Counted from the first letter of the stretch, positions 5,359 through 31,480 are shown. The stretch: DNA of 45,296 bases from Gemmatimonadales bacterium (GCA_044449445.1 JBIOIA010000002.1:1-45296), one strand, 5' to 3'. Notes: a model not told the origin generated them from the letters alone. Translations and numbers: made by a program.

Positions 5359-5705
5359 AGCCGCTGACGCGGCTGGTGCTGACGGCGGCTTCGCTCGAGG
5401 TGTGCTGCGGCGCCTTCGGGTACGTGGCCGGCGGGGTGTACGCGATGGCCGCGGCGTTCGTCGGAGCGAGCATAGGGGCCGCCGCGCAGATCCTGGCTGT
5501 CGTGCTGCTCAGCCCCGCGATGCGGGCGGGCACCGCGCAGTTCCAGCAGCGCTGGGTCCTCGGCATGGCGGTGCGGTTCGCGAGCTTCCTGCTGTTCGCG
5601 GCCCTGCTCGTGCTGACGAAACAGACGCTGCCGCCGCTGTGGATGGCGGCCGGCTACCTCGGCACGCTGCTCGTTCTTCTCTTTGCGGAGACGCGATTTC
5701 TGTGA
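5355..5705 (+). CDS. atpI: ATP synthase protein I (AtpI-like membrane protein)
   Basis: GTG at 5355 overlaps the atpZ stop (GTGA). Hydrophobic 116-aa product lying directly before atpB. Start chosen by coupling, not verified. Confidence 0.55.
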   Translation: MKPLTRLVLTAASLEVCCGAFGYVAGGVYAMAAAFVGASIGAAAQILAVVLLSPAMRAGTAQFQQRWVLGMAVRFASFLLFAALLVLTKQTLPPLWMAAGYLGTLLVLLFAETRFL

Positions 5706-6574
5706 TGATGCAGGATCCCGACATCGGCGGGATGATTCTCCATCACACCTCGGACGCGCACGAAATCGAGCTGCCGTTCGCGGAGTGGCTGCACTGGGGG
5801 CCGATCCACTTGCCCCAGTGGGCGCCGGTGCACGTGGGTGGCATGGAGATCGACCTGTCGCCGACCAAGCACGTCGTGTTCATGATCCTGGCGGCGTTCC
5901 TGGTCTGGCTCACGATGTACCTGACGGGCCGCGCGCTGGAGAAACAGCGGCTGTCCGGGCGTGGGCCGCGCGGCATCCCGGGGATGATCGAGGCGATGGT
6001 GTTGTACGTGCGCAAGGACGTCGCGCTCGCCAACATCGGTCACGGAGGCGGGCCGTTCGTCCCGTACATCCTGACGCTGTTCTGGTTCATCCTGTACTGC
6101 AACATGCTCGGCCTGCTGCCGTGGGGTGCGACGCCGACGGGCAACCTCGCCGTCACGGGCGCGCTGGCACTGACGGCGTTCGCCACGATCGAGATTTCGG
6201 GGATGGTGGCCCTGGGGCCCAAGGGCTACATGAAGACGATCGTGTTCTCGCCGCCCGGCACCACCGGCGTCACCAGGGTGCTGCTTACGCTGATCATGAT
6301 CCCGGTCGAGCTGATCGGGAAGGTCGTGAAGCCGTTCGCGCTGATGCTCCGTCTGTTCGCGAACATGACGGCCGGCCACTTCGTCGTGCTGTCGCTACTC
6401 GGCCTGATCTTCCTGTTCGGCAACGTGGCCATCGTCAAGTGGCTGGTGGCCGGCGGGTCGGTCTTCTTCGTACTGTTCATGATGGCCCTGGAGCTGTTCG
6501 TGGCGCTGCTCCAGGCGTACATCTTCGCGCTGCTCACGAGTGTGTTCATCGGCCTGATGCAGCATGAACATTGA
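5705..6574 (+). CDS. atpB: F-type ATP synthase Fo subunit a
   Basis: In-frame ATG at 5705 overlaps the atpI stop. Contains conserved LRLFANMTAGH and LLQAYIFALLT segments of subunit a. Confidence 0.92.
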   Translation: MMQDPDIGGMILHHTSDAHEIELPFAEWLHWGPIHLPQWAPVHVGGMEIDLSPTKHVVFMILAAFLVWLTMYLTGRALEKQRLSGRGPRGIPGMIEAMVLYVRKDVALANIGHGGGPFVPYILTLFWFILYCNMLGLLPWGATPTGNLAVTGALALTAFATIEISGMVALGPKGYMKTIVFSPPGTTGVTRVLLTLIMIPVELIGKVVKPFALMLRLFANMTAGHFVVLSLLGLIFLFGNVAIVKWLVAGGSVFFVLFMMALELFVALLQAYIFALLTSVFIGLMQHEH

Positions 6575-6580
6575 GACTAG

Positions 6581-7448
<868 letters not shown>

Positions 7449-7452
<4 letters not shown>

Positions 7453-8003
7453 AGAACCCGGTCGTCGCCCGCAACTACGCTTCGGCCCTGCTCGCGCTCG
7501 CGCGCGAGGCCGACACGGTCGAGCGCTTCGGCGATCTGCTGGACGCCATGGCGGGCGCCGTCGCGGCAACGCCCGCGGTGAAGGCCGTGCTGATGTCGCC
7601 GCGGGTGCGCAAGGATGCCAAGCAGCAGGTGCTCGCGAAGGCGCTCAAGGGCGTCGCGCCCGAGACGTTCGTGCGGTTCCTTCAGGCCATCGTGCGGCGC
7701 GGCCGCCAGGGGATGCTGTCGGACATCAGCGCCGCCTACGGCGAGCTGGCCGACCAGCACTTCAACCGGGTGCACGCGAGCGTCACGACGGCGCGCGAAG
7801 TGGACAAGAAGCTCGCCAGGGAGATCGGGGAGCGGCTCGAGCGGGCGGTGGGCAAGACGGTGCTGCCGCACTTCCACGTGGACCCGGAGGTCGTGGGCGG
7901 GGTCGTGGTCCGGGTCGGCGACCGCGTGTTCGACGGCTCGCTCAGGCGTCGCCTGCAGACCCTGCGACGCGCCATGCTGACCTCGCGCGGGGCGGGCGCC
8001 TAG
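7449..8003 (+). CDS. atpH: F-type ATP synthase subunit delta (OSCP)
   Basis: GTG at 7449 overlaps the atpF stop (GTGA). N-terminus VARNYASALLALA and C-terminal GGVVVRVGDRVFDGSLRRRL are typical of delta subunits. Confidence 0.88.
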
Positions 8004-9949: not shown

Positions 9950-11014
9950 CTACTCGTTGCGCGCCATCGCGAGGTCCACGATGGCGCCCATCGCCTCGGC
10001 GTAGGAACGGCCCGACTTGCGCGCGGCCATCGCGAACTCGGCGCCCGAGCTGAGCCACGGGTTCGGGTTCGCCTCGATGACGTAGATCTTTCCCTCCCCG
10101 GTCAGCCGCAGGTCGATGCGCCCGTAGTCGCGCAGCTGGAGCGCCTGGTAGGCGGCCACCGCGGTCTGCTGCAGGCTCTCGGCGGTCTCGCCGTCCAGGT
10201 CTTCGGCGATCCTCGAGCGCGTCTTCCTGTACGCCTCGGTGTCCTTGTCCCACTTCACCTCGGTGCCCGCGATCCGCGGCGTGCCCTCGGGCAGCTTCGA
10301 GAGGTCCATCTCGACCAGGGGCAGCGCCTCCGGCTGCTCGTTGCCGAGGATCGAGGCGTAGATCTCGCGGCCCTCGATGTACTCCTCGATCAGCGCCGGC
10401 GTGTCGAATTCCTCGTGGATGTAGTGGATGCGCTCCATCAGCTCCTTGACGCTCGAGACCACGGACCCCGCGTCGATGCCGATCGAGCCGTCCTCGCTCT
10501 GCGGCTTCACGATGAGCGGGAACGCGATGTCGTGGGCGTGCTCGCTGAAGCCCTTGTAGCTGACGGCGAAGAACGGCGTGCGGATGTCGTGGAAATGGAA
10601 CAGCTTCTTGGCGAGCGACTTGTTCTGGGCGAGGTAGAGGCCCTGCGGGCCGGCGCCGGTGTAGGGCAGGTCGAGCAGGTCGAGGTACGCGGCGACGTTC
10701 ATGTCCTTGGTGTCGTCGCCGGCGTACGACTCCGACAGGTTGAAGATCAGATCCGCCCGCGTCTTGGCGACGGCCAGGAGGGAAGGATCCGCGCCGTCGA
10801 TGACGAGGTAGCTCGGCTGGTGGCCCAGCCTGCCTAACGCTTCGAAGATCTCTTCGCGGTCGAGCTTGGGCCGGCGCACCTTCCTGGTCTTCCGGCCCTT
10901 GCGGCGGCGCCGGCGAGGCGCGGGCTCCTGGACCAGCACGTCCGCGGTCGGCTCCTCGGCGCCATCGTCCCAGGTGTCGTAGAGGATCGCGACCTTCAGG
11001 CCCTCGTATGCCAC
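9950..11014 (-). CDS. ATP-grasp ligase, D-Ala-D-Ala ligase-like family, with polybasic insert
   Basis: 354 aa. Motifs PLIVKPQSEDGSIGI, EEYIEGREIY and IYVIEANPNPWL. Residues 34-50 read RRRRRKGRKTRKVRRPK. Confidence 0.85.
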   Translation of the reverse strand: MAYEGLKVAILYDTWDDGAEEPTADVLVQEPAPRRRRRKGRKTRKVRRPKLDREEIFEALGRLGHQPSYLVIDGADPSLLAVAKTRADLIFNLSESYAGDDTKDMNVAAYLDLLDLPYTGAGPQGLYLAQNKSLAKKLFHFHDIRTPFFAVSYKGFSEHAHDIAFPLIVKPQSEDGSIGIDAGSVVSSVKELMERIHYIHEEFDTPALIEEYIEGREIYASILGNEQPEALPLVEMDLSKLPEGTPRIAGTEVKWDKDTEAYRKTRSRIAEDLDGETAESLQQTAVAAYQALQLRDYGRIDLRLTGEGKIYVIEANPNPWLSSGAEFAMAARKSGRSYAEAMGAIVDLAMARNE

Positions 11015-11021
11015 GGATCTC

Positions 11022-12044
11022 CTAGGGCTGGGTGAAGCGGCCGCGGGCGAGGTAGTTCATCGCGAGCGCGGTCGTGTACGCGGTGACCTCCACCACGTGG
11101 GCCTGCTCGCGGCCGTGCTGCGTGGCCAGCTTGAGGTGCCGCACGCGGTCCTCGATGGATTCCACCAGCTTCTTCACCAGCGGCCGCCGCACGCCGGTCC
11201 AGTACGTCACCTTGTCCACGATGTCCTTGCGGCGCTCGGCGAGCAGGTCCGCAGCGGGGCGCACGTGGTTGCGCCGGACTCCGCGTTTCCGGACAAAGAT
11301 GTCCGCGAGGTCCGTATCGAGGGCGAGATCGGCGATGGCCTGGGACTCGTCGGGCATGGTCTGCCGGTAGAACTCACCCAGCGTGACCGCCATGTCGTCC
11401 ACCGTCACGTCGGTCTCGCCCATGGCGCGGACCGGCTCGCGGTTTGCGCACTGGCGCGCCATCCGGTCCACGTAGCGCAGTTTGCGCAGCGCGCCCCAAC
11501 CCTTGTAGCGCCGGCGCCAGTTGGACCGCGGCGTGAGCCACACGGCGAACGTCTCGGCGAAGTCCTCGTCGGGGTGCTTTTGCGCGTACCAGCCGGCGAT
11601 GTGCCTGACGTGGCGGCGCGAAAACGGCACGGGGCGGTAACGGTCGCGGTAGGGGCGGCGGAACGGGCCGAACACCGCCTTCCAGTCGTCCCGCTTGTAG
11701 AGCTCGTAGGCGTAGTTGAACGCGTGCCCGGCCTCGTGGCGCAGGTACATCATGATCTCGCGCTCGTCCTCGAGGTCGTTGATTTCGCGCTCAAGCGCCT
11801 GGAGCTTGGGATCGGCGAGGTAGAATGGAATGCCGATGACGGGCTCCTGATCGGGGCAGCCCCACTCGTCGGTGAGGTAGCAGCGCGGGCGGAAGTGCTT
11901 CAGTCCCTTGCGCTCGAGCTCCGCCTGGAGCTGCACGACGTACTTCTCGAGTGGCGAGCCCTCGAGGCGCAGGCCGAGGTCCTTGATGGGCCTGCCGAGC
12001 AGCTCGGGATCGGCGTGGGGCGCTTCGAAGGGATGCACGCTCAC
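11022..12044 (-). CDS. Putative zinc-dependent metallopeptidase (HEAGH ... HPDEDFAETFAVW), uncharacterised family
   Basis: 340 aa. HExxH motif in MYLRHEAGHAFNYAY plus a downstream acidic EDFAE segment. GTGA overlap with the upstream M20 gene. Confidence 0.7.
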   Translation of the reverse strand: MSVHPFEAPHADPELLGRPIKDLGLRLEGSPLEKYVVQLQAELERKGLKHFRPRCYLTDEWGCPDQEPVIGIPFYLADPKLQALEREINDLEDEREIMMYLRHEAGHAFNYAYELYKRDDWKAVFGPFRRPYRDRYRPVPFSRRHVRHIAGWYAQKHPDEDFAETFAVWLTPRSNWRRRYKGWGALRKLRYVDRMARQCANREPVRAMGETDVTVDDMAVTLGEFYRQTMPDESQAIADLALDTDLADIFVRKRGVRRNHVRPAADLLAERRKDIVDKVTYWTGVRRPLVKKLVESIEDRVRHLKLATQHGREQAHVVEVTAYTTALAMNYLARGRFTQP

Positions 12045-13285
12045 GCCTCGCCGGCGGCGACGGCCACGACCAGCGCCCTGAACACGCCGTCAGGACCGTT
12101 CGCGTTCTCGTACCACTCGGTCTCGAGGTGCGCGTCGCCGCCCTTGCCGCCGGCGCCGAGCGCGATGCCCGGCACGCCGCGGCTGATGGGCACGTTGGCA
12201 TCGGTGGACGCGGCGGCGAGCTGCGGGTTGGCGCCGAGGGCGCGCGTGGCGGCGAGCGCGGCCTGGACGAGCGGGTGCTTCTCGCTGGTCGCGCCCGAAG
12301 GGCGCTGGCCCAGCGGCGTCAGGTCGAGCGTCAGGGGCGGCGTTCCCGCCGAGCGACTGCGGTTCACGAGGTCAAGGGCGCGCGCGAGCGCGTTGGTTGC
12401 CGACTCGTAGAGGCGCTCGAGCGCGGCCTCGGACTCCGAGCGCAGGTCGAACTCGAGCCACGCTTCCTGCGGAATCGTGTTCAGCGAGCTGCCGCCGCCG
12501 ATGCGCACGACGCTGAGCGACGCGCGCGGGCTCGCCGGCAGCGGGATCTCGGCGATGCGCGCGGCGGCGAGGCCGACGGCGTGCGCGGGATTGGCGACGC
12601 CGAAGGCGGCCCACGAGTGCCCGCCGGGTCCCTTGAACGCGGCGCGCAGGCGCCGCGATCCCAGCGCCCGGTGGACCACGCGTTCCATGCCGGGCCCGTC
12701 CAGCGCGATGAACGCGTCGGGCGTGAACGCGGGATCTTCGAACAGGTGCTTGACGCCCTTGAGGTCGCCGTGCCCCTCCTCACCGACCGACGCGATGAAG
12801 GTGATCGGCTTGGCGGGGACGACGTCGCAGGCGCGGCACGCCTCGGCGACGGTGAGCAGCGCCGCGAGCCCGCGGGCGTTGTCGCCTATTCCGGGCGCGG
12901 CGATGCGCCCGTTGGTCTCCCGCACGTCGAGCGCGACGGAGGACGCGAAGACGGTGTCGAGGTGGGAGCACAGCACGACGCCGGGGCCGGTACCCCCGCC
13001 CAGCCGCCCGTGCACGTTGCCGGCCCGGTCGATCCGGGTTCCGGCGAGCCCCAGCGCCTCGAACCGCTCGGCGACGAAGGCACCGCGCCGGCCCTCGTCG
13101 CCCGTCGGGGCGGGGATCTTCACGATTGCGCGCTGAAGCTCGAGCACCCGCGCATCGTGGCCGAGCAGCCAGCCCCGGGCGCGCTCGATGTCGGCGCGGG
13201 CGAGGAGAGAGGTGACAGTGCGCTCCACGGCCGGAGCGTAACGTTCGGGCGGGTCCGCGGCAAGCGCGCTTGACGCGCTTTCCAC
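12041..13285 (-). CDS. M20-family metallopeptidase/deacylase
   Basis: 414 aa. CSHLDTVF, GIGDNARG and SVGEEGHGD metal-ligand motifs typical of M20 enzymes (ArgE/DapE/PepT-like). Confidence 0.85.
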   Translation of the reverse strand: MESASSALAADPPERYAPAVERTVTSLLARADIERARGWLLGHDARVLELQRAIVKIPAPTGDEGRRGAFVAERFEALGLAGTRIDRAGNVHGRLGGGTGPGVVLCSHLDTVFASSVALDVRETNGRIAAPGIGDNARGLAALLTVAEACRACDVVPAKPITFIASVGEEGHGDLKGVKHLFEDPAFTPDAFIALDGPGMERVVHRALGSRRLRAAFKGPGGHSWAAFGVANPAHAVGLAAARIAEIPLPASPRASLSVVRIGGGSSLNTIPQEAWLEFDLRSESEAALERLYESATNALARALDLVNRSRSAGTPPLTLDLTPLGQRPSGATSEKHPLVQAALAATRALGANPQLAAASTDANVPISRGVPGIALGAGGKGGDAHLETEWYENANGPDGVFRALVVAVAAGEA

Positions 13286-13297
13286 CTACCTTAGACT
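13270..13297 (+). promoter_or_regulatory. Sigma-70-like promoter of the LeuA-like/DUF885/MFS unit (TTGACG-N16-TAGACT)
   Basis: TTGACG at 13270-13275 and TAGACT at 13292-13297. ATG 13308 lies 10 nt downstream. Confidence 0.45.
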
Positions 13298-13307
13298 GGT
13301 GACGGCG

Positions 13308-14543: not shown

Positions 14544-16147
14544 TGGCCCCCGCGAGCTATCGCGAGCTGGTTCGCAGTTACCTCGACCTCAGGTGGCAGC
14601 TCGATCCGGTCGCCGCCACTCTGGCCGGGGTCCCGACACACGACGCGCACCTGGGCCGGTTCTCGCGCCCCGACGTCAAAATCCAGATCGCGGCGCTCAA
14701 GGCGATGGCGACCGCATTCGAGGCCGCTGAAGTGGACGCGCTCGCCGACCAGGTGGATCTCACGGCCGTCCTCAACGACACCCGGATATGGATCGCGCGG
14801 CTCGAGACGGAGAAGCCGCACGAGCTGAACCCCGAGTTCCATCTCTCGCACCTCCTGACCGGACTGTTCGCGCTGATGATCCGCGACGGCCAGCCGGTGG
14901 ACCTGCGCGGCCGCGCGCTCGCCGCGCGGCTGCTCGATACGCCGCGGTTCCTCACCGACGCCAGGACCGCGCTCCAGCGGCCGGCATCGGTCTTCACCGA
15001 GACGGCGGTGTCGGTTTCGCGCGGCGGGCGCACCCTGCTCCGGGAGGCGATCCCGCAATTCGCGACGGCGCTTCCGGTCGTCGTGAGGAAGCAGATCGAG
15101 GAGGCGCTGGTCCCGGCGCGCGATGCGTACGAGGAGTTCGCGGAGTTCCTGGCCGGCGAGCTGATCGACCGCTCGGACGGCGACTTCGCGATCGGGCGCG
15201 ACGCGTTCGACTTCCGGCTCCACTTCGAGCACGCGCTGCGCGAGAGCGCGCCCCAGCTGCTGCGCTACGGCGAATCGCTGGCCGCGGAGCTCACAGCCGA
15301 TCTCGAGCGCCGGGCCGAGGCGATCGCGCCGGGTACGCCGTGGCGGGCGCTCGCCGAGCGCCTGCGCAGGAACACGCCGCCGGCCGCCGGCCTGGTCGGG
15401 CGTTACGCCTCCGAGATGCAGCGCGCCCGCGAGTTCGTCGTGGGCAAGGGCCTGGTCAGCGTTCCCGACGGGCCGCTGGAAGTGGTTCCAACGCCCCCGT
15501 TCATGGAGCCGCTGATCCCGTTCGCCGCGTACGATCCTCCCGGCGCGTTCGCGGAGGAGCGCCGCGGCTGGTTCTACGTCACGGTTCCCGGCGCGGAGCG
15601 ACTCACGGACCACTGCGTGCACGAGATCGCGTGCACGGCGCTGCACGAGGGCTATCCGGGCCATCACCTGCAGTTCCTGCGCGCCTTCGAGCAACCCTCG
15701 CCGGTGCGGCGCGTCGTCAGCTCGCCGCTCACGGTCGAGGGCTGGGCGCTCTACTGCGAGGAGCTGATGGCCGACCAGGGTTTCCTCGCTTCGCAGGAAG
15801 AGGTGTTCTTCCAGCGGCTGCACCTGCTGTGGCGCGCGGTGCGCATCGTGCTCGACGTGCGGCTCCACACCATGGGGATGCCGATGGACGAGGCGGTGCG
15901 CTACATGACCGAATCGTTAGGCATCGGAAAGGGCAGCGCCGATGCCGAGGTGCGGCGGTACTGCGGCGCGCCGGCGTACCAGTTGTGCTACGCGGTGGGC
16001 CGCCGGGAGCTGCTGCGGCTGCGCGAGGACGCGAAGCGGCGCGCGGGTGCGTCCTTCTCGTTGCGGGGTTTCCACGATGAGGTGCTCTCGTACGGCGGGC
16101 TGCCGGTGTCGCTCATCCGGTGGGGGATGGGACTGGGCGATGGCTGA
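14543..16147 (+). CDS. DUF885-family protein (metallopeptidase-like HEGYPGHH motif)
   Basis: GTG at 14543 overlaps the upstream TAG by 1 nt. CTALHEGYPGHHLQF matches the DUF885 signature. Confidence 0.75.
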   Translation: MAPASYRELVRSYLDLRWQLDPVAATLAGVPTHDAHLGRFSRPDVKIQIAALKAMATAFEAAEVDALADQVDLTAVLNDTRIWIARLETEKPHELNPEFHLSHLLTGLFALMIRDGQPVDLRGRALAARLLDTPRFLTDARTALQRPASVFTETAVSVSRGGRTLLREAIPQFATALPVVVRKQIEEALVPARDAYEEFAEFLAGELIDRSDGDFAIGRDAFDFRLHFEHALRESAPQLLRYGESLAAELTADLERRAEAIAPGTPWRALAERLRRNTPPAAGLVGRYASEMQRAREFVVGKGLVSVPDGPLEVVPTPPFMEPLIPFAAYDPPGAFAEERRGWFYVTVPGAERLTDHCVHEIACTALHEGYPGHHLQFLRAFEQPSPVRRVVSSPLTVEGWALYCEELMADQGFLASQEEVFFQRLHLLWRAVRIVLDVRLHTMGMPMDEAVRYMTESLGIGKGSADAEVRRYCGAPAYQLCYAVGRRELLRLREDAKRRAGASFSLRGFHDEVLSYGGLPVSLIRWGMGLGDG

Positions 16148-17330
16148 GCGCTCCCGGCTCCCGCGCGCGGTCTACTGGTTCGGCGCGACCTCGCTCGCCA
16201 ACGACTTCGCGTCCGAGATCATCTACCCGCTGCTGCCGGCGTTCGTGACCCAGACGCTGGGCGGCGGCGCGCTCGCCCTGGGCGTCCTGGACGGGGTCGC
16301 GGATGCGGTCGCGGCGTCGTTCAAGCTGATCAGCGGCTACCTCGCCGAGCTCCGATGGACGCGCGGCATCATGGTGGTGCTCGGCTACGGGATCGCGACG
16401 CTGGTGCGCCCGCTGATCGCCATGGCGAGCGCGGCCTGGCACGTGATCGTGCTGCGGGCCGCCGACCGCGTCGGCAAGGGGATCCGCACGGCGCCCCGCG
16501 ACGTGATGATCGCGGACGTCACGGTGGACGAGATCCGCGGGCGCGCGTTCGGCCTGCACCGTGCGGCCGATCACGTCGGCGCGATTCTCGGCCCGCTCGC
16601 GGCAGCGCTCCTGCTCGCGCGCGGCTTCGCGGTGCGCGACGTGTTCTGGGTGGCGGCACTGCCCGGGGCGGCGGCGGTCATTCTGTCGTGGGTCGCCGTG
16701 CTCGCGGCGCGGCGCGCCGGATCCGGTTCGGGCGAGGGCCCCTCGCCTTGGGCGCAGACGGAACGGCAGGGTCGCGCGCCCGGCTTCGTATCGCTGGTGC
16801 TCGTCCTCGCGCTCGGCACGTTGCTGCGCGCACCGGAGACGCTCCTGATCCTGCGCACGCAGGACCTGGGGGTAGCGGTCGGCGCGGTGCCGCTCCTGTG
16901 GGCCGCGCTGCACGTGGTGCGATCGAGCGCGAGTTACGGCGGCGGCACGCTGGCCGACCGCTGGGGACCGCGCCGGACGATGGCGGTTGGCTGGGTGCTG
17001 TACGCGGCGTTGGCGGTGGGCTTCGCGCGCGCCACGACGATGGCGCAGGCGATCGCGCTGTTTCTGGCTTACGGACTCGTCGCCGCGCTGACCGAGAGCC
17101 CCGAGCGCAAGCTGATCGCGCACGTCTCGGGCGGCGCCAGGCGCGGCCGCGGCTTCGGCTGGTACCACGGAACGCTGAGCGCGGTGGCGCTTCCCGGCGC
17201 AGCGCTGTTCGGCTGGCTGTACCAGGCGCACGGCGCGGCGTTGGCCTTTGAAGTCAGCGCCGCGGCGACGATGCTGGCGGTGGCGTCGCTCGCGGCCGCA
17301 GGTGCGGCGCGCACCGGCGAGGCGGCCTAG
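16140..17330 (+). CDS. MFS transporter
   Basis: ATG at 16140 overlaps the DUF885 stop. About 12 hydrophobic segments. N-terminus YWFGATSLANDFASEIIYPLLPAF. Confidence 0.8.
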   Translation: MAERSRLPRAVYWFGATSLANDFASEIIYPLLPAFVTQTLGGGALALGVLDGVADAVAASFKLISGYLAELRWTRGIMVVLGYGIATLVRPLIAMASAAWHVIVLRAADRVGKGIRTAPRDVMIADVTVDEIRGRAFGLHRAADHVGAILGPLAAALLLARGFAVRDVFWVAALPGAAAVILSWVAVLAARRAGSGSGEGPSPWAQTERQGRAPGFVSLVLVLALGTLLRAPETLLILRTQDLGVAVGAVPLLWAALHVVRSSASYGGGTLADRWGPRRTMAVGWVLYAALAVGFARATTMAQAIALFLAYGLVAALTESPERKLIAHVSGGARRGRGFGWYHGTLSAVALPGAALFGWLYQAHGAALAFEVSAAATMLAVASLAAAGAARTGEAA

Positions 17331-19357
17331 TCCCCCGAGGCGAGCGCCGTCTGCACGAACGGCGTCTCGCTCATCCGCGGCAGCTTGCGCTTGCTGAGCA
17401 CCAGGAACCACTCCCACAGGCTCGCGACGATCACCAGCACGACCACCGCCATGAACGCCAGCGCCAGCGCCGCATCGAGGCGGTCGTTGAACATCAGCCG
17501 CTGGGCGCCGGGGGCTCCCGAGCCCGCGAGCGAGCGCGCGTGCGAGAGAAACCCGAGCCGCGGATCGAGCGCGAAGACCTTCTCGATGCCGGCCGTGAGC
17601 GTCACGGTGGTGACGAAAGCCAGGGGGACGAGCGTCACCCACGCGTAGCGGACCCGGTTCATCTTGATGATGATCGTCGTGGTGACGCACAGCGCGATGC
17701 ATGCCAGCAGCTGGTTGGCGATGCCGAACAGCGGCCACAGCGAGTTGATGCCGCCCAGCGGATCCACCACGCCCTGGTAGAGGACGTAGCCCCAGCCGGC
17801 CACGAACAACCCGCTCGCCACGACGTTGGCCGGATACCACGACAGCTCGCCGAGTCGCTTCCACCCGTGCCCGAGCAGCTCCTGCACCATGAACCGGCCG
17901 ACCCGCGTGCCGGCGTCCACCGTCGTCAGGATGAACAGCGCCTCGAACATGATGGCGAAGTGGTACCACAGGGCGAGTGCGCCGGGCGAAAACAGCCCGC
18001 CCAGGATGTGCGCCATGCCCACGGCGAGGCTCGGCGCGCCGCCGGTGCGTGAGTACAGCGACACCTCGCCCATCTGGCGCGCGAGCGCCTCCATCTGTCC
18101 CGGCTCCAGCACGAAGCCCCATGCCGCCACCGTGCGGATCGCCGCCTCGCCCGTGCCCACCGTGGCGGCCGGCGCGTTCATCGCGAAGTAGACGCCGGGT
18201 TGGAGCGTCGTCGCGGCGATCATCGCCATCAGGCCGACGAACGACTCGGTCAGCATGGCGCCGTAGCCGATCAGCCGGGCGTGCGATTCGCGCGTGACCA
18301 TTTTCGGGGTCGTGCCGCTCGCCACCAGCGCGTGGAATCCCGAAATCGCGCCGCACGCTATGGTGATGAACGCGAACGGAAACAGCTTGCCCGCGAACAC
18401 CGGACCGGTGCCGTTGACGAACGGCGTCACGGCGGGCATCCGGATCGGCGGCAGCAGGATCAGGATCGCCGCGGCCAGAACGACCACGGTGCCGACCTTG
18501 AGGAACGTCGAGAGGTAATCGCGCGGGGCCAGCAGCAGCCACACCGGCAGCACCGAAGCCGCGAATCCGTAGACGATCACGGCCCAGGCCAGCGAGGTGC
18601 CCGACCAGGTGAACCAGCCCGACCAGGTCGGGTCCTGCGCGACCCAGCGCCCGCCCAGCAGCGCCACGGCCAGCAGCGCCACGCCGACGAGCGACGCCTC
18701 GAGCACGCGGCCCGGCCGGAAGCGGCGCATCCACCAGCCCATCAGCAGCGCGATCGGGATCGTGCACGCGATGGTGAACAGGCCCCAGGGGCTGGCGCGC
18801 AGCGCGTTGACCACCACGAGCCCGAGCACCGCGATCAGGATGACGAGGATCGCGATGATCGCGACCAGCGCCGCGCTGCCCGTCGCGGGGCCGATCTCCT
18901 CGGCCGCCATCTTGCCCAGCGACTTGCCGTCGCGGCGCAGCGAGCAGCACAGGATCGTGAAGTCCTGCACCGCTCCGCCCAGCACCACTCCGGCCACCAG
19001 CCACAGCGTCCCCGGCAGGAAGCCGAACTGTGCCGCCAGCGTCGGTCCGACCAGCGGACCGGCGCCCGCGATCGCCGCGAAGTGGTGGCCGTAGAGCACC
19101 CACTTGTTGGTCGGCACGAAGTCGCGGCCGTTGGCGAGGCGCTCGGCGGGCGTGGCCCTCCGGTCATCGAGGCCGAAGACCTTGAGCGACACGAAGCGCG
19201 AGTAGAAGCGGTACCCGATGACGTAGGAGCAGATGCCGGCGACCAGGATCCAGGCGGCGCTGATGGTCTCGCCCCGCGCCGTGGCCATGACGGCGAATCC
19301 GGCGGCGCCCAGGGCGGCGACGAGGAACCAGGCGATTCGGCGAAGCAGCGGCTGCAT
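17327..19357 (-). CDS. cstA: Carbon starvation protein A (peptide/pyruvate transporter family)
   Basis: Strong CstA N-terminal signature (YRFYSRF...GHHFAAIAGAGPLVGP). Start moved to the second ATG (19357) because the first ATG (19372) lies inside a -10-like hexamer. Confidence 0.9.
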   Translation of the reverse strand: MQPLLRRIAWFLVAALGAAGFAVMATARGETISAAWILVAGICSYVIGYRFYSRFVSLKVFGLDDRRATPAERLANGRDFVPTNKWVLYGHHFAAIAGAGPLVGPTLAAQFGFLPGTLWLVAGVVLGGAVQDFTILCCSLRRDGKSLGKMAAEEIGPATGSAALVAIIAILVILIAVLGLVVVNALRASPWGLFTIACTIPIALLMGWWMRRFRPGRVLEASLVGVALLAVALLGGRWVAQDPTWSGWFTWSGTSLAWAVIVYGFAASVLPVWLLLAPRDYLSTFLKVGTVVVLAAAILILLPPIRMPAVTPFVNGTGPVFAGKLFPFAFITIACGAISGFHALVASGTTPKMVTRESHARLIGYGAMLTESFVGLMAMIAATTLQPGVYFAMNAPAATVGTGEAAIRTVAAWGFVLEPGQMEALARQMGEVSLYSRTGGAPSLAVGMAHILGGLFSPGALALWYHFAIMFEALFILTTVDAGTRVGRFMVQELLGHGWKRLGELSWYPANVVASGLFVAGWGYVLYQGVVDPLGGINSLWPLFGIANQLLACIALCVTTTIIIKMNRVRYAWVTLVPLAFVTTVTLTAGIEKVFALDPRLGFLSHARSLAGSGAPGAQRLMFNDRLDAALALAFMAVVVLVIVASLWEWFLVLSKRKLPRMSETPFVQTALASGD

Positions 19358-19367
19358 GTTGGCCGCT

Positions 19368-19397
19368 AGCATACGGTTGGGCGGGTGGCCCGGTCAA
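19368..19397 (-). promoter_or_regulatory. Sigma-70-like promoter of cstA (TTGACC-N18-TATGCT)
   Basis: On the minus strand, TTGACC lies at 19397-19392 and TATGCT at 19373-19368. The first ORF ATG (19372) is inside the -10 box. The next ATG (19357) is 10 nt downstream. Confidence 0.5.
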
Positions 19398-28185: not shown

Positions 28186-29436
28186 CTAGACCGGCGGCTG
28201 GGAGCCGAATGCCTGCGCGTCTCCCAGCAGGATGGCGGTGATCGTCTCGCCCGGCAGCACCGCGTCGCGTCCCTCGGGAATCACGAGCAGCGCGTTGGCC
28301 CGCGCCATGCTCGTGAGAATGCCCGAGCCCTGCGGTCCCGTCAACGTCGCCCTGAGCGTTCCGTTCTCCTCGCGGATGACGCCGCGCAGGAAGTGCGTCA
28401 GCCGACCCGGCGTTTTCGCGGGCTCGTCCATGACCACGCGCACGGTGCGACGGAACAGGTCGCGATAACCCTGCATCTTCCGCACGGCGGGCCGCACGAA
28501 CAATTCGAAGCACACCATGGTGCTCACCGGGTTGCCCGGCAGCCCGATCCACGGGACGCCGGCCAGGTGGGCGAATCCCAGCGGCGAGCCCGGGCGCATC
28601 TGCACGCGCCAGAAGTCCATCGTCGCGCCGAGCTTCTCGAGCGCGGTGCGCATGAAGTCGTGCTCGCCGACGCTGACGCCCGCCGTGGAGACGACCAGGT
28701 CGGACTCGCGCGCGCCGCGCTCGAGCAGGGCCGCCACGCTGTCCAGCGGGTCGGCCGCGATGCCTAACGGAACCGGCGTGGCGCCGGCGTCCAGGGCCAG
28801 CGCGTGGAGGGTGTACGAGTTCGAGGACGCGATCTTGTCGCCGGCCAGGATCGCCGCCGCCTGGTCGAGTTCGGCGATCTCGTCGCCGGAGGCGAGGATC
28901 GCGACCCGCGCGCGCCGGTGCACGCGCACCCGCGGCATCGCCATGGAGGCGAGCACGCCGAGCTGCGCCGCGCCGAGCACCGTGCCCGGCTCGAAAACGC
29001 GCGCGCCCTTCTTCAGGTCTTCGCCGGCCAGGCGCAGGTTCTTGCCCGCGTCACGCTCGTCGAAAACCGCGACCCTGTCGCCCGCGCGCTCGGTGTCCTC
29101 CTGGCGGATGACGCCGTCGGAGCCCTCGGGGAGCGCCGCGCCGGTGAAGATGCGCGCGCACTGGCCCGCGCCCAGCACTTTCGCCGGCAGCCGGCCCGCC
29201 GGGATTTCCTCGATGATGGCGAGCCGTTTCGGCGCGGCCTTCGTGGCGCCGCGCACGTCCGTCGAGCGAACCGCGTAGCCGTCCATCGCGGAGTTGGTGC
29301 GGGGCGGCAGCACGAGTGGGGAATCCACCGGCTCGGCGAGGACACGGTCCCTGGCCTCGAGGAGCGCGACTTCCTCGACGCCCAGGACTTTCACGCCGGC
29401 GACGATGCGCTCTGTCGCCTCGCGGACGCTGGTCAC
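28186..29436 (-). CDS. moeA: Molybdopterin molybdenumtransferase MoeA
   Basis: GTG at 29436 within a GTGA overlap with dacB. NSAMDGYAV, GDEI and STAGVSVGEHDF motifs. The rest of the 920-aa track ORF is out-of-frame read-through of dacB. Confidence 0.9.
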   Translation of the reverse strand: MTSVREATERIVAGVKVLGVEEVALLEARDRVLAEPVDSPLVLPPRTNSAMDGYAVRSTDVRGATKAAPKRLAIIEEIPAGRLPAKVLGAGQCARIFTGAALPEGSDGVIRQEDTERAGDRVAVFDERDAGKNLRLAGEDLKKGARVFEPGTVLGAAQLGVLASMAMPRVRVHRRARVAILASGDEIAELDQAAAILAGDKIASSNSYTLHALALDAGATPVPLGIAADPLDSVAALLERGARESDLVVSTAGVSVGEHDFMRTALEKLGATMDFWRVQMRPGSPLGFAHLAGVPWIGLPGNPVSTMVCFELFVRPAVRKMQGYRDLFRRTVRVVMDEPAKTPGRLTHFLRGVIREENGTLRATLTGPQGSGILTSMARANALLVIPEGRDAVLPGETITAILLGDAQAFGSQPPV

Positions 29437-30962
29437 CGCCGCCGGCGCGCGAAGTTGGCCAGCCGCTCGACGACGTGGTCTTGCGCGCGCTCCACGACGC
29501 GGCGACTCGCGGTGAAGTGATTGCACAGCAGCACGAACACCAGCCGCTCGCCGTCCAGGGTCGTGACGTAGCCCGACAGGCTGCGCACGTTCGCGATCGA
29601 TCCGGTCTTGGCGTGCACGTTGCCCTGGGCCGCCGTGCCGCGCAGGCGCTGGTCGATCGTCCCATCCACGCCCGCGATGGGGAGCGCGGCGTAGAAGGCG
29701 TTGAAGTCCGGATTGCGCGTGATCGAGACCAGCGCCTGCGCGATCGCTTCGGGCGCCACGTAGTTGTAGCGCGAGAGCCCGGACCCGTCGATGTAGACGT
29801 AGGCGTCCTCGGGAATCCCCCAGCCGGTCAGCGTTTCGTGCACGACCACGCGGCCGCTGTCGACGGACGCGACGTTCTTGACCACGCCGCCGAGCGTGCG
29901 CAAGAGCGCCTCGGCGATCTGGTTCTGGCTGGGCTTGAGGAGAAGCGTGAGGACGCTGTCCAGCCGCGGCGACTGCCAGGCGAACAGCGTGTCGATCCGC
30001 GGACTGCACAGGCAGCACGAACAACCGGGACCCGAAAGCGGCGAGGCGGGGACGATCGTCGTCGAGGGCGGCAGCCGCGGGCCGAGCACGCTGATGCCGG
30101 CTTCGCGCAGGGCCTGAGTCAGCGCATCCTCGAAGAAGCGCGTGGGGTCGGTGACCGCGGCCTCGAACTGCATGGGCGGGTGGCCTGCCGACAGCCGGCC
30201 GCTGAGCAGCACCGAGTCGGTGTAGAAGGCGCGCGAGTAGTGCACGTCCCGGATGTTCGAGTCCCGGCTCGCCGTAGTGACTTGCGAGAACACCCTGAGC
30301 GGAGCGCCTTCGGGCCACAGGCGAGCGTGCGCCGTGTCGCCGGGGTTGGCACCCGGCGTCACGTCGATCACGGCGAAGCCCTCGTTGAACTGGAGCGCGC
30401 CCACCGGTGCCGAGTATGAGTCCTGGAGGTCGTCCCACATCCATCCCTCGCCGAGGACCGGGCCCTGGAACCAGCTCGCGTCGCCGACCACGCGCCCCGT
30501 GATCACGCGGATGCCGCGCGCCTTGAGCGAGTCGGCCCACGGCCGCAGCGGGGCCAGGATGTCGCCGTTGGCGCTGGCGTGCTGCGACAGTGCGGGATCG
30601 CCGTGCCCGACGACGACCAGGTCGCCGCTCAGCGTGTCGCCGCTGCGCGCTCCGCGCGCGAGAATCACGGTCCGCCACCTGAAGTCGGCGCCCAGCCGCG
30701 CGAGCGCGACGGTGCCGGTGACGATCTTCTGGTTGGACGCCGGCATGAACAGCCGCGCCGCGTTGCGTCGGTAGAGGACCTGCCCGTTGGTGGCCGACTG
30801 CACGACGACGCCCCACTGCGCGCGGGCGAACTCGGGGCCGTCGAACGTGCTGTCGAGCTCGGCGGCGAGGCTGCGGACTTCTGGAGCGAGGGGTTCGGTT
30901 GGATGACGGGCGGCGCAGCCCGCCACGAGGATCGCGGCGAGCGCGCACGCCCCGCGCCTCAC
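29433..30962 (-). CDS. dacB: D-alanyl-D-alanine carboxypeptidase/endopeptidase (PBP4, peptidase S13), lipoprotein
   Basis: Active-site ASNQK, plus HGDPAL and KTGS motifs. GTG at 30962 within a GTGA overlap with mobB gives VRRGACALAAILVAGC (lipobox). Confidence 0.85.
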   Translation of the reverse strand: MRRGACALAAILVAGCAARHPTEPLAPEVRSLAAELDSTFDGPEFARAQWGVVVQSATNGQVLYRRNAARLFMPASNQKIVTGTVALARLGADFRWRTVILARGARSGDTLSGDLVVVGHGDPALSQHASANGDILAPLRPWADSLKARGIRVITGRVVGDASWFQGPVLGEGWMWDDLQDSYSAPVGALQFNEGFAVIDVTPGANPGDTAHARLWPEGAPLRVFSQVTTASRDSNIRDVHYSRAFYTDSVLLSGRLSAGHPPMQFEAAVTDPTRFFEDALTQALREAGISVLGPRLPPSTTIVPASPLSGPGCSCCLCSPRIDTLFAWQSPRLDSVLTLLLKPSQNQIAEALLRTLGGVVKNVASVDSGRVVVHETLTGWGIPEDAYVYIDGSGLSRYNYVAPEAIAQALVSITRNPDFNAFYAALPIAGVDGTIDQRLRGTAAQGNVHAKTGSIANVRSLSGYVTTLDGERLVFVLLCNHFTASRRVVERAQDHVVERLANFARRRR

Positions 30963-31480
30963 CGGGCGCCCTGCAACACGATGTCGATCAGGCGGTACAT
31001 CCATGCGGTGTCGGAGAAGCGCAGGATCGGCACCGCAGCGCGGAACTCGCGATCATCCGTCACGATCGCGAGAAACTTCTCGGAGCCCGGAACGCCGGCC
31101 TGGTAGAGCGGTTCGGCGTGCACGGCCTTGCGGAACACTTCGATCTTCGGCAGGTCGGATTCCTTGAATCCCTCGACCACCACGAACTGCGCCTCGGCGA
31201 GGTACTTGTCGGCCAGCTCGCGCGGTCCCATCGGCTCCTCGGGCTTCGCGAGCAGCACGCGCATCGTCGGCGTCTCCATCACGACGCGGCTCGATCCGCC
31301 CTCGTGCATGTGGCGCCACGTGTCCCGGCCCTGCTGGTCGATCTCGAACGGATGACTTCCGTGCTTGATCGTCATCACCTTGTGACCGCGGCGGACGAGC
31401 TCCTTCACCAGCGCGACCACGAGCGTGGTCTTGCCGGCGTTCTTCTTGCCTACGATCGCGATCAGCCGGGGACCCGGCAT
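30959..31480 (-). CDS. mobB: Molybdopterin-guanine dinucleotide biosynthesis adapter MobB
   Basis: 173 aa. P-loop IVGKKNAGKTT and KHGSH segment. Confidence 0.85.
   Translation of the reverse strand: MPGPRLIAIVGKKNAGKTTLVVALVKELVRRGHKVMTIKHGSHPFEIDQQGRDTWRHMHEGGSSRVVMETPTMRVLLAKPEEPMGPRELADKYLAEAQFVVVEGFKESDLPKIEVFRKAVHAEPLYQAGVPGSEKFLAIVTDDREFRAAVPILRFSDTAWMYRLIDIVLQGAR

Follow-up and report, generated by a model that had tools for sequence, protein, structure and literature searches.

The stretch of DNA analysed here (the window, taken throughout as the whole stretch) was 45,296 nt long and came from a Gemmatimonadales bacterium (GCA_044449445.1 JBIOIA010000002.1:1-45296). It was a chromosomal stretch of 70% G+C, and its closest relatives were Gemmatimonadales metagenome-assembled genomes. 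Three minus-strand genes between positions 9,950 and 13,285 encoded, from 5' to 3', an M20 metallohydrolase (M20), a predicted zinc metallopeptidase of the Peptidase_Mx family (Mx) and an ATP-grasp amide ligase related to D-alanine-D-alanine ligases (Ddl). An earlier reading of the DNA, made from the sequence alone (the sequence-only reading), had described the three genes as a coupled triad. When their neighbourhoods were compared across genomes, the Mx–ligase part of that claim stood and the triad did not: the conserved unit is a two-gene Mx–ligase module that occurs in several bacterial phyla. The genes and features of the locus were as follows.

9950-11014, minus strand: ATP-grasp amide ligase, 354 aa; core member of the pair, Ddl-derived subfamily
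10865-10966, minus strand: charged loop of the ligase, probably disordered (residues 17-50, DGAEEPTADVLVQEPAPRRRRRKGRKTRKVRRPK), at the presumed site of the Ddl GGxSxE substrate loop
11015-11023, minus strand: Mx–ligase junction, a 7-nt gap with an AGGAG ribosome-binding-like motif over the Mx stop codon
11022-12044, minus strand: Mx, predicted zinc metallopeptidase (Peptidase_Mx family), 340 aa; core member of the pair
11538-11576, minus strand: HPDEDFAETFAVW motif of Mx, containing the presumed third zinc ligand (Glu), 54 residues past HExxH
11724-11738, minus strand: HEAGH zinc-binding/catalytic motif of Mx, conserved in the family
12041-12044, minus strand: GTGA shared by the stop codon of M20 and the annotated start codon of Mx, as read from the sequence
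12041-13285, minus strand: M20 metallohydrolase, PahZ2-like, 414 aa; lineage-specific neighbour and possible accessory outside the conserved core

The three genes, their motifs (HLDTV, GDNARG and GEEGHGD in M20, HEAGH and HPDEDFAETFAVW in Mx), the GTGA overlap and the 7-nt gap were all present as the sequence-only reading had described them, and its family calls (M20, zinc-peptidase-like and Ddl-like ATP-grasp ligase) were borne out by the Pfam profile search. All three open reading frames (ORFs) had a coding-type composition, with a codon-position G+C (GC3) of 0.92-0.96. At the Mx–ligase junction, the TAG stop codon of Mx (11024-11022) was followed by GAGATCC (11021-11015) and by the GTG start codon of the ligase at 11014. 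The AGGAG Shine-Dalgarno-like motif was located at 11023-11019 and overlapped the Mx stop codon. At the other junction, the TGA stop codon of M20 and the GTG start codon of Mx shared GTGA at 12044-12041. An alternative GTG for Mx was located at 12038, two codons downstream, and would give a protein of 338 aa, the length of most homologues; the M20–Mx coupling in the window is tight whichever of the two is used. A scan of the three-gene block for promoter-like and terminator-like sites found none inside it.

The conservation of the locus was examined by two scans. In scan 1, the window Mx was searched against one genome per species, which gave 80 loci from Gemmatimonadota, Terriglobia, Thermoanaerobaculia and their relatives. 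In scan 2, a distant Mx representative (P0188) was used as the query and gave 80 loci from Blastocatellia/Pyrinomonadaceae. An exhaustive HMMER search for Mx returned ~1,900 clusters at 50% identity, and the contigs of eight distant representatives were inspected. A ligase orthologue was found directly after Mx in 76 of the 80 scan 1 loci, on the same strand in 75 of them; the sole convergent arrangement was that of L022, and the remaining four loci were cut by contig ends. Across phyla, Mx and the ligase of these loci shared 60-82% identity with their window counterparts. The pair was likewise present in 76 of the 80 scan 2 loci, frequently with a 4-nt gene overlap, at identities to the window proteins of 37-40% for Mx and 35-37% for the ligase. 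Over both scans, the ligase adjoined Mx in 152 of 160 loci. In five of the eight distant representatives, one of them from Melioribacteraceae (the sole locus from a genome scan with P0204), a Dala_Dala_lig_C gene encoding 326-346 residues came after Mx, and the two genes often overlapped by 4 nt. Pairing with Mx was retained down to about 31-32% identity. This adjacency is far beyond chance. Furthermore, when 70 loci were compared in pairs, Mx identity and ligase identity were correlated with r = 0.99, and with 0.90 and 0.97 within the two large clades. Therefore, the two genes are inherited together.

One of the longer Mx homologues, P0215 (568 aa), was a single-chain fusion of Mx and the ligase (L196:7001-8707 and L197:363-2069). 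Residues 10 to ~235 of P0215 corresponded to the catalytic part of Mx, with 39% identity to the window Mx and with HEAGH and D-F-A-E-T-F-A kept. Residues ~245-568 formed a complete ligase, 39% identical to the window ligase. The 90% cluster of P0215 contained four members on contigs of up to 256 kb; they came from independent sources (JGI, Logan, ENA and NCBI), so that the fusion was seen in several separate metagenome assemblies. The fusion gene was solitary in two independent contigs, and no M20 was present at the fusion loci. Missing from the fusion was the helical domain at the C-terminus of Mx (residues ~235-340); this domain may dock Mx to the ligase when the two are separate proteins. 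No other single observation argues as strongly as this Rosetta-stone fusion that both activities belong to one process and need no third component. The tie between the middle protein and an ATP-grasp ligase, which the sequence-only reading had ascribed to comparative genomics, thus proved strong and evolutionarily deep and was confirmed by the natural fusion.

The ligase matched the Pfam domain Dala_Dala_lig_C (3e-29), and its nearest solved structures by sequence were Ddl and VanA. Each of the 25 curated Ddl/Van models listed scored it far below the respective cut-off, and the best NCBIfam Ddl model (NF002378) gave 121 bits against a cut-off of 243. Residue equivalences were counted from an alignment to E. 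coli DdlB. The residues for ATP and Mg were kept: K144, K215, R255, D257, E270 and N272 of DdlB corresponded to K170, K254, R299, D301, E314 and N316 of the window ligase, and these catalytic equivalents were invariant across the pair-linked ligases. The residues of the D-Ala sites were replaced: S150, Y216, G276, S281 and L282 of DdlB corresponded to G176, W255, W320, A325 and E326, respectively. In addition, a new invariant arginine, R303, was located at the position of M259 of DdlB. Because the ATP/Mg residues are kept and the D-Ala-site residues are replaced, the ligase is, judged by its sequence, an active ATP-dependent carboxylate–amine ligase whose specificity is new; it is no D-Ala-D-Ala ligase.

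The GGxSxE region of DdlB (E15 loop) had no aligned counterpart in the ligase, and a charged insert of ~34 residues was located after the first β-strand. This insert probably occupies the position of the Ddl GGxSxE loop. The insert, DGAEEPTADVLVQEPAPRRRRRKGRKTRKVRRPK, was acidic and proline-rich in its first part and extremely basic afterwards, with 12 K/R within 15 residues. Its character was kept in 69 homologues of the Gemmatimonadota/Terriglobia type, whose best 15-residue windows held 9.6 K/R on average. The insert was short and uncharged in the fusion and in ligases of the Blastocatellia and L162 types.

Homologues of the ligase (P0276 and many others) were labelled 'D-alanine-D-alanine ligase' by the JGI pipelines, and 'ATP-grasp domain-containing protein' or hypothetical by NCBI. 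Together with Dala_Dala_lig_C as the best Pfam domain, the JGI name would favour an ordinary D-Ala-D-Ala ligase that happens to lie beside two unrelated peptidases. The model scores and the replaced specificity residues contradict this, as do the pairing with Mx down to about 31-32% identity, the co-divergence of the two proteins and the fusion in one lineage. Among the rival explanations considered here, this is the only one that the sequence data effectively exclude. Judged by its residues and scores, the Ddl label on this family is a mis-annotation. The sequence-only reading had allowed that the ligase might cluster robustly with bona fide Ddl enzymes, and with 121 bits against 243 and a changed set of specificity residues it did not. 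A gene for a Peptidase_S13 protein (PBP4-type D-Ala-D-Ala carboxypeptidase) was located in the window at 29433-31004 on the minus strand, ~16 kb from the ligase, with no sign of linkage.

A cell-wall function was also weighed, in which the ligase makes an alternative dipeptide or stem-peptide residue and Mx removes a competing or recycled peptide, according to the logic of VanA/VanX and Ddl/DdpX. A ligase paired with a zinc peptidase is the arrangement of VanA and VanX. Among solved structures, Ddl and VanA stand nearest to the ligase, the ATP/Mg residues are shared with them, and the gene logic of a ligase with a zinc dipeptidase is common to both systems. Moreover, an NlpC/P60 cell-wall endopeptidase gene was found a few hundred bases downstream of the ligase and on the same strand in 35 of the 80 Blastocatellia loci (loci of the L123-L160 type; for example L141:8703-9404, same strand as the ligase). 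However, this neighbour was restricted to one lineage, and no mur, fts, vanH, vanR, vanS or other van-operon genes were found beside the pair in the window or in ~190 related loci from all lineages sampled. The ligase reached about half of the Ddl cut-off, the residues for D-Ala1 and D-Ala2 were all replaced, and the charged insert stood in place of the N-terminal substrate loop. Mx is also unrelated to VanX, being no M15 peptidase. A cell-wall function is therefore considered very improbable.

Mx matched Peptidase_Mx (PF15887) with 1.4e-8 and 34.9 bits against a cut-off of 27, and the match covered only residues 91-171. The sequence-only reading had placed the middle protein in the 'putative zinc-binding metallopeptidase' family, and this above-cut-off match agrees with it; PF15887 was also matched by all 59 diverse Mx homologues. 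Residues H103, E104, H107, E160, D161 and E164 were invariant in these 59 homologues, down to 31% identity, and the spacing from HExxH to HP(D)EDFAETFAVW was fixed at 54 residues in the family representatives. The AlphaFold (AF2) model of Mx was of high confidence, with a pLDDT of 93.6 and a pTM of 0.89. The PDB contained no close structural relative of Mx. Its top Foldseek neighbours were anthrax lethal factor, 4l7a and MtfA, all non-significant (best E = 0.087), and the alignments were local (114-143 columns, rmsd 3.8-5.5, TM about 0.2-0.3, probability up to 0.94). In agreement with these neighbours, weak profile matches to Peptidase_Mx1 and ATLF were obtained for 45 and 14 of the 59 members, respectively (best ATLF match 3.8e-4). 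A PDB search with the single Mx sequence returned no match, and a search with the Mx profile returned only marginal ones, 4l7a and 9urd (E ~0.8).

MtfA (M90), anthrax lethal factor (M34) and Bacteroides BACCAC_01431 (4l7a, Peptidase_Mx1) share with Mx the HExxH motif and a downstream glutamate in a helix of the E-x-F-A type. What sets Mx apart is an N-terminal part of its own and, at the C-terminus, a helical domain of about 110 residues. Mx is a predicted cytoplasmic gluzincin, probably of the lethal-factor/MtfA type, in which the active-site residues appear intact. No signal peptide was seen by inspection in the ligase, Mx or M20, so that the chemistry of the system is expected to be cytoplasmic.

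No experimentally studied member of PF15887 or of the Mx–ligase pair was found in the PDB or the searchable literature, in keeping with the sequence-only reading, which knew of no experimentally defined product for this gene combination. A literature mention of 'Peptidase_MX' turned out to be the Pfam clan in a toxin-antitoxin paper, and for a remark on Tenacibaculum the tie to the PF15887 family was not established.

The neighbouring ORFs were clustered across loci, and no further gene was conserved beyond lineage-local synteny. No conserved small ORF that could serve as a precursor peptide was found near the pair, nor was any substrate, precursor, carrier or export gene conserved with it across the loci. 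The absence of an adjacent substrate or precursor gene, noted for the window by the sequence-only reading, thus extended to the related loci. A RiPP/precursor (graspetide) interpretation was rejected; the only small ORFs that looked 'conserved' were either lineage-local sequences or came from other reading frames of the ligase N-terminus, and the ligase is Ddl-like. An anti-phage defence interpretation was rejected as well, after PADLOC models gave no match for any of the three proteins.

The interpretation favoured here, which is considered moderately probable, is that Mx and the ligase form a make-and-break module for a small amide-linked product derived from ordinary cell constituents. The ligase would descend from D-Ala-D-Ala ligases with rebuilt substrate pockets. 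It would activate a carboxylate as an acyl-phosphate with ATP and join this carboxylate to an amine, the two being other than D-Ala and D-Ala. Its substrates would most likely be amino acids or a short peptide, which would give a small amide-linked product. Mx would most likely hydrolyse the same class of bond, so that the two enzymes together control how much product is present, or edit it. The substrates should be ordinary cell constituents, because the pair moves between unrelated contexts without a third gene and because the fusion is self-contained. In Gemmatimonadales, M20, if it is involved at all, would probably complete the degradation to free amino acids. The sequence data show the pairing of the genes, their co-divergence, the fusion, the retained catalytic residues and the lost Ddl specificity residues; from these we infer that both enzymes act on one product according to this make-and-break logic. 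That the product is acidic, containing Asp or Glu, is doubtful at best; the weak hint comes from the PahZ2-like neighbour, the invariant additional arginine (R303) and the polybasic loop.

The closest analogy for the Mx–ligase module is the glutathionylspermidine synthetase/amidase of E. coli (GspSA), which, like the trypanothione synthetase-amidase, is a fusion of an ATP-grasp synthetase and an amidase for the same bond. In both systems an ATP-dependent amide-forming ligase is tied to a hydrolase, here as a conserved gene pair and as the natural fusion P0215, and by this analogy the module may be a self-contained unit that acts on common metabolites. However, the hydrolase of GspSA is a CHAP cysteine amidase, whereas Mx is a predicted zinc peptidase. 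The GspSA synthetase is also not Ddl-like, and no redox-switch cysteine is implied for Mx and the ligase.

Several observations weigh against the make-and-break module. A ligase and a hydrolase that act on the same bond would constitute a futile cycle unless regulated, and no regulator was evident. Three of the eight distant Mx homologues had no ligase nearby, and two Gemmatimonadales loci (L167 and L169) kept M20 and the ligase while Mx was missing, so that the pairing is not obligatory. The predicted model of the ligase, based on an alignment of close homologues, was of low confidence (pLDDT 40, pTM 0.31), and its pocket was unreadable. The fold matches that would place Mx beside lethal factor and MtfA were non-significant, as described above. 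As for the acidic product, the hint depends on the M20 neighbour of a single lineage and on a loop absent from other subclades.

The nature of Mx, the conservation of the pair and the charged loop bear also on protein tagging, in which the ligase would extend the C-terminus or a side chain of some conserved protein by one or several amino acids and Mx would serve as the eraser. Between Gemmatimonadota and Terriglobia, Mx and the ligase keep an identity of 60-80%, which is unusually high across phyla and would fit a conserved macromolecular partner. The disordered, K/R-rich loop could be a binding site for RNA or for the acidic surface of a protein, and both lethal factor and MtfA have proteins or peptides as substrates or binding partners. 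Precedents for peptide tagging by ATP-grasp enzymes have been summarised (PMC4431377), and the present system would resemble RimK, which adds poly-α-glutamate tails to ribosomal protein S6, and the tubulin tyrosine ligase-like enzymes with their carboxypeptidases: a writer of the ATP-grasp type, an eraser that is a metallopeptidase and possibly a product of acidic nature (PMC4431377). However, the window ligase fell into the Ddl/VanA group by sequence and outside the RimK/LysX group, as no RimK/LysX-type family was among its matches. To our knowledge, all characterised members of the Ddl/VanA group act on small molecules. In addition, no conserved target gene was found near the pair, and the charged loop was absent from other subclades. 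Protein tagging is considered quite unlikely.

M20 was composed of the Pfam domains Peptidase_M20 (PF01546) and M20_dimer (PF07687). Its best PDB match was PahZ2 of Sphingomonas sp. KT-1 (PDB code 7ljh; E = 1.8e-74, 38% identity over 351 residues), followed by DapE with 4e-11. The motifs HLDTV, GDNARG, GEEGHGD and GGDAH of M20 were aligned with the PahZ2 motifs, the metal-binding motifs being conserved. PahZ2 degrades oligo-aspartate with alpha or beta linkages to free aspartate (PMC13017698). It was reported to be periplasmic (PMC13017698), whereas the window M20 had no visible signal peptide, and no PahZ1 partner was present in the window. The first 41 residues of M20 contained no hydrophobic, signal-peptide-like stretch by eye, at a start codon that is itself uncertain. 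The annotated start of M20 and the start of the divergent HMGL-like gene were separated by 13 nt (13285-13299), a plus-strand promoter-like site (13270-13297) fell within the M20 ORF, and the homology to PahZ2 began only at residue 42. For these three reasons, the true start of M20 is probably located further downstream than annotated.

M20 was found beside the pair in scan 1 only at the five Gemmatimonadota loci. It was absent from all Acidobacteriota loci of both scans and from the other pair-carrying lineages sampled. When M20 itself was used as the query, orthologues with at least 61% identity were confined to Gemmatimonadales and were always located beside the pair. Within this order, M20 and Mx were separated by a chorismate mutase/prephenate dehydrogenase gene in L171 and by an RCC1-repeat gene in L001. 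The 4-nt overlap of M20 and Mx was found in the window only; the gap was a few nucleotides in the closest relative (L166) and roughly 80-130 nt in the others. In L167 (5001-7367) and L169 (5001-7353), M20 was directly followed by the ligase with a gap of ~100 nt. The more distant M20 homologues (L176 and Thermanaerothrix) had no pair nearby. A convergent NTP-transferase gene downstream was as syntenic as M20 within Gemmatimonadales. Because of the insertions, the restriction to one lineage and the equally syntenic NTP-transferase gene, M20 is at most a lineage-specific accessory, and its adjacency could be plain synteny.

These data bear directly on a true triad, as the sequence-only reading had it, in which M20, Mx and the ligase would together build and trim an oligo- or poly-amino-acid, for instance an oligomer rich in aspartate or glutamate, with Mx as an endo-acting or trimming enzyme and M20 as an exopeptidase that gives back the monomers. 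The co-directional order in the window with its 4-nt overlap and 7-nt gap, the presence of M20 beside the pair in all Gemmatimonadales loci that carry a close orthologue, and the homology of M20 to the oligo-Asp exopeptidase PahZ2 would support it. The K/R-rich loop of the ligase could hold a polyanion, and the loci with M20 and the ligase but no Mx would be compatible with partly redundant hydrolases. On the other hand, M20 is absent from the Acidobacteriota, from other pair-carrying lineages and from the fusion loci, unrelated genes stand between M20 and Mx in two loci, and distant M20 homologues occur without the pair. With the NTP-transferase gene equally syntenic, adjacency within one order is weak evidence. 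A true triad is thus considered unlikely, and the claim of coupling does not extend beyond Gemmatimonadales, where the overlap itself is specific to the window.

A related possibility is that the ligase polymerises Asp or Glu into a free oligomer or a protein tail, that the K/R loop holds the resulting polyanion, that Mx trims it and that the PahZ2-like M20 of Gemmatimonadales recycles it to monomers. Cyanophycin synthetase with cyanophycinase and isoaspartyl dipeptidase offers a parallel, in which an ATP-grasp enzyme builds an Asp backbone and peptidases recycle it, and a PahZ2-like enzyme would act on Asp–Asp bonds. However, the window system lacks a Mur-ligase-like domain, a CphA N-domain and an S51 peptidase, and the link to cyanophycin is made only by way of the lineage-specific M20. 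This possibility is considered decidedly improbable.

M20 could equally belong to a loose peptide-catabolism neighbourhood, as two genes within 6 kb of it encoded a carbon-starvation transporter, CstA (peptide/pyruvate), and a DUF885 protein whose HEGYPGHH motif is zincin-like. Their positions were as follows.

14546-16147, plus strand: DUF885 protein with HEGYPGHH
17327-19372, minus strand: CstA transporter

An ATP-grasp amide ligase that is genomically coupled to a peptidase is a familiar kind of system. Particular to the present case are the pairing of a rebuilt Ddl-type ligase with a Peptidase_Mx zincin, its occurrence in several phyla and its natural fusion. The pair is abundant, with the ~1,900 Mx clusters and thousands of close relatives in soil and freshwater metagenomes, and is strongly conserved in soil-dominant, poorly studied phyla. 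The mislabelling of part of the ligase family as Ddl, an essential cell-wall enzyme, may misguide metabolic reconstructions and the interpretation of antibiotic targets. Knowing the product would bring bacterial physiology either a new ATP-grasp chemistry or a new regulated metabolite, and, given the natural fusion and the lack of accessory genes, the make-and-break module should be easy to reconstitute. If the product were an acidic oligomer, it would provide a natural substrate for PahZ2-like 'polyaspartate hydrolases' and would reveal that soil oligotrophs (Acidobacteriota, Gemmatimonadota and others) share a widespread system that has so far gone unrecognised.

The remaining neighbours of the pair were lineage-local. 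In Blastocatellia, they included endonuclease III, an AlkA-like glycosylase, an MFS transporter and a secreted protein in addition to NlpC/P60, and in Thermoanaerobaculia and Terriglobia a metallo-β-lactamase-fold protein, an FAD oxidoreductase and others. Three co-directional upstream neighbours were seen without recurrence: a Peripla_BP_6/ANF_receptor-type binding protein with a 4-nt overlap with Mx (L161:6523-8004), a four-gene ABC transporter (L191:305-4139) and a Peptidase_M48 protein (L193:4144-4944). Elsewhere in the window, a split atp operon was located at 5402-8003 on the plus strand, in which the genes for ATP synthase a, c, b and delta were followed by polyferredoxin, cupin and NTP-transferase genes in place of alpha, gamma, beta and epsilon.

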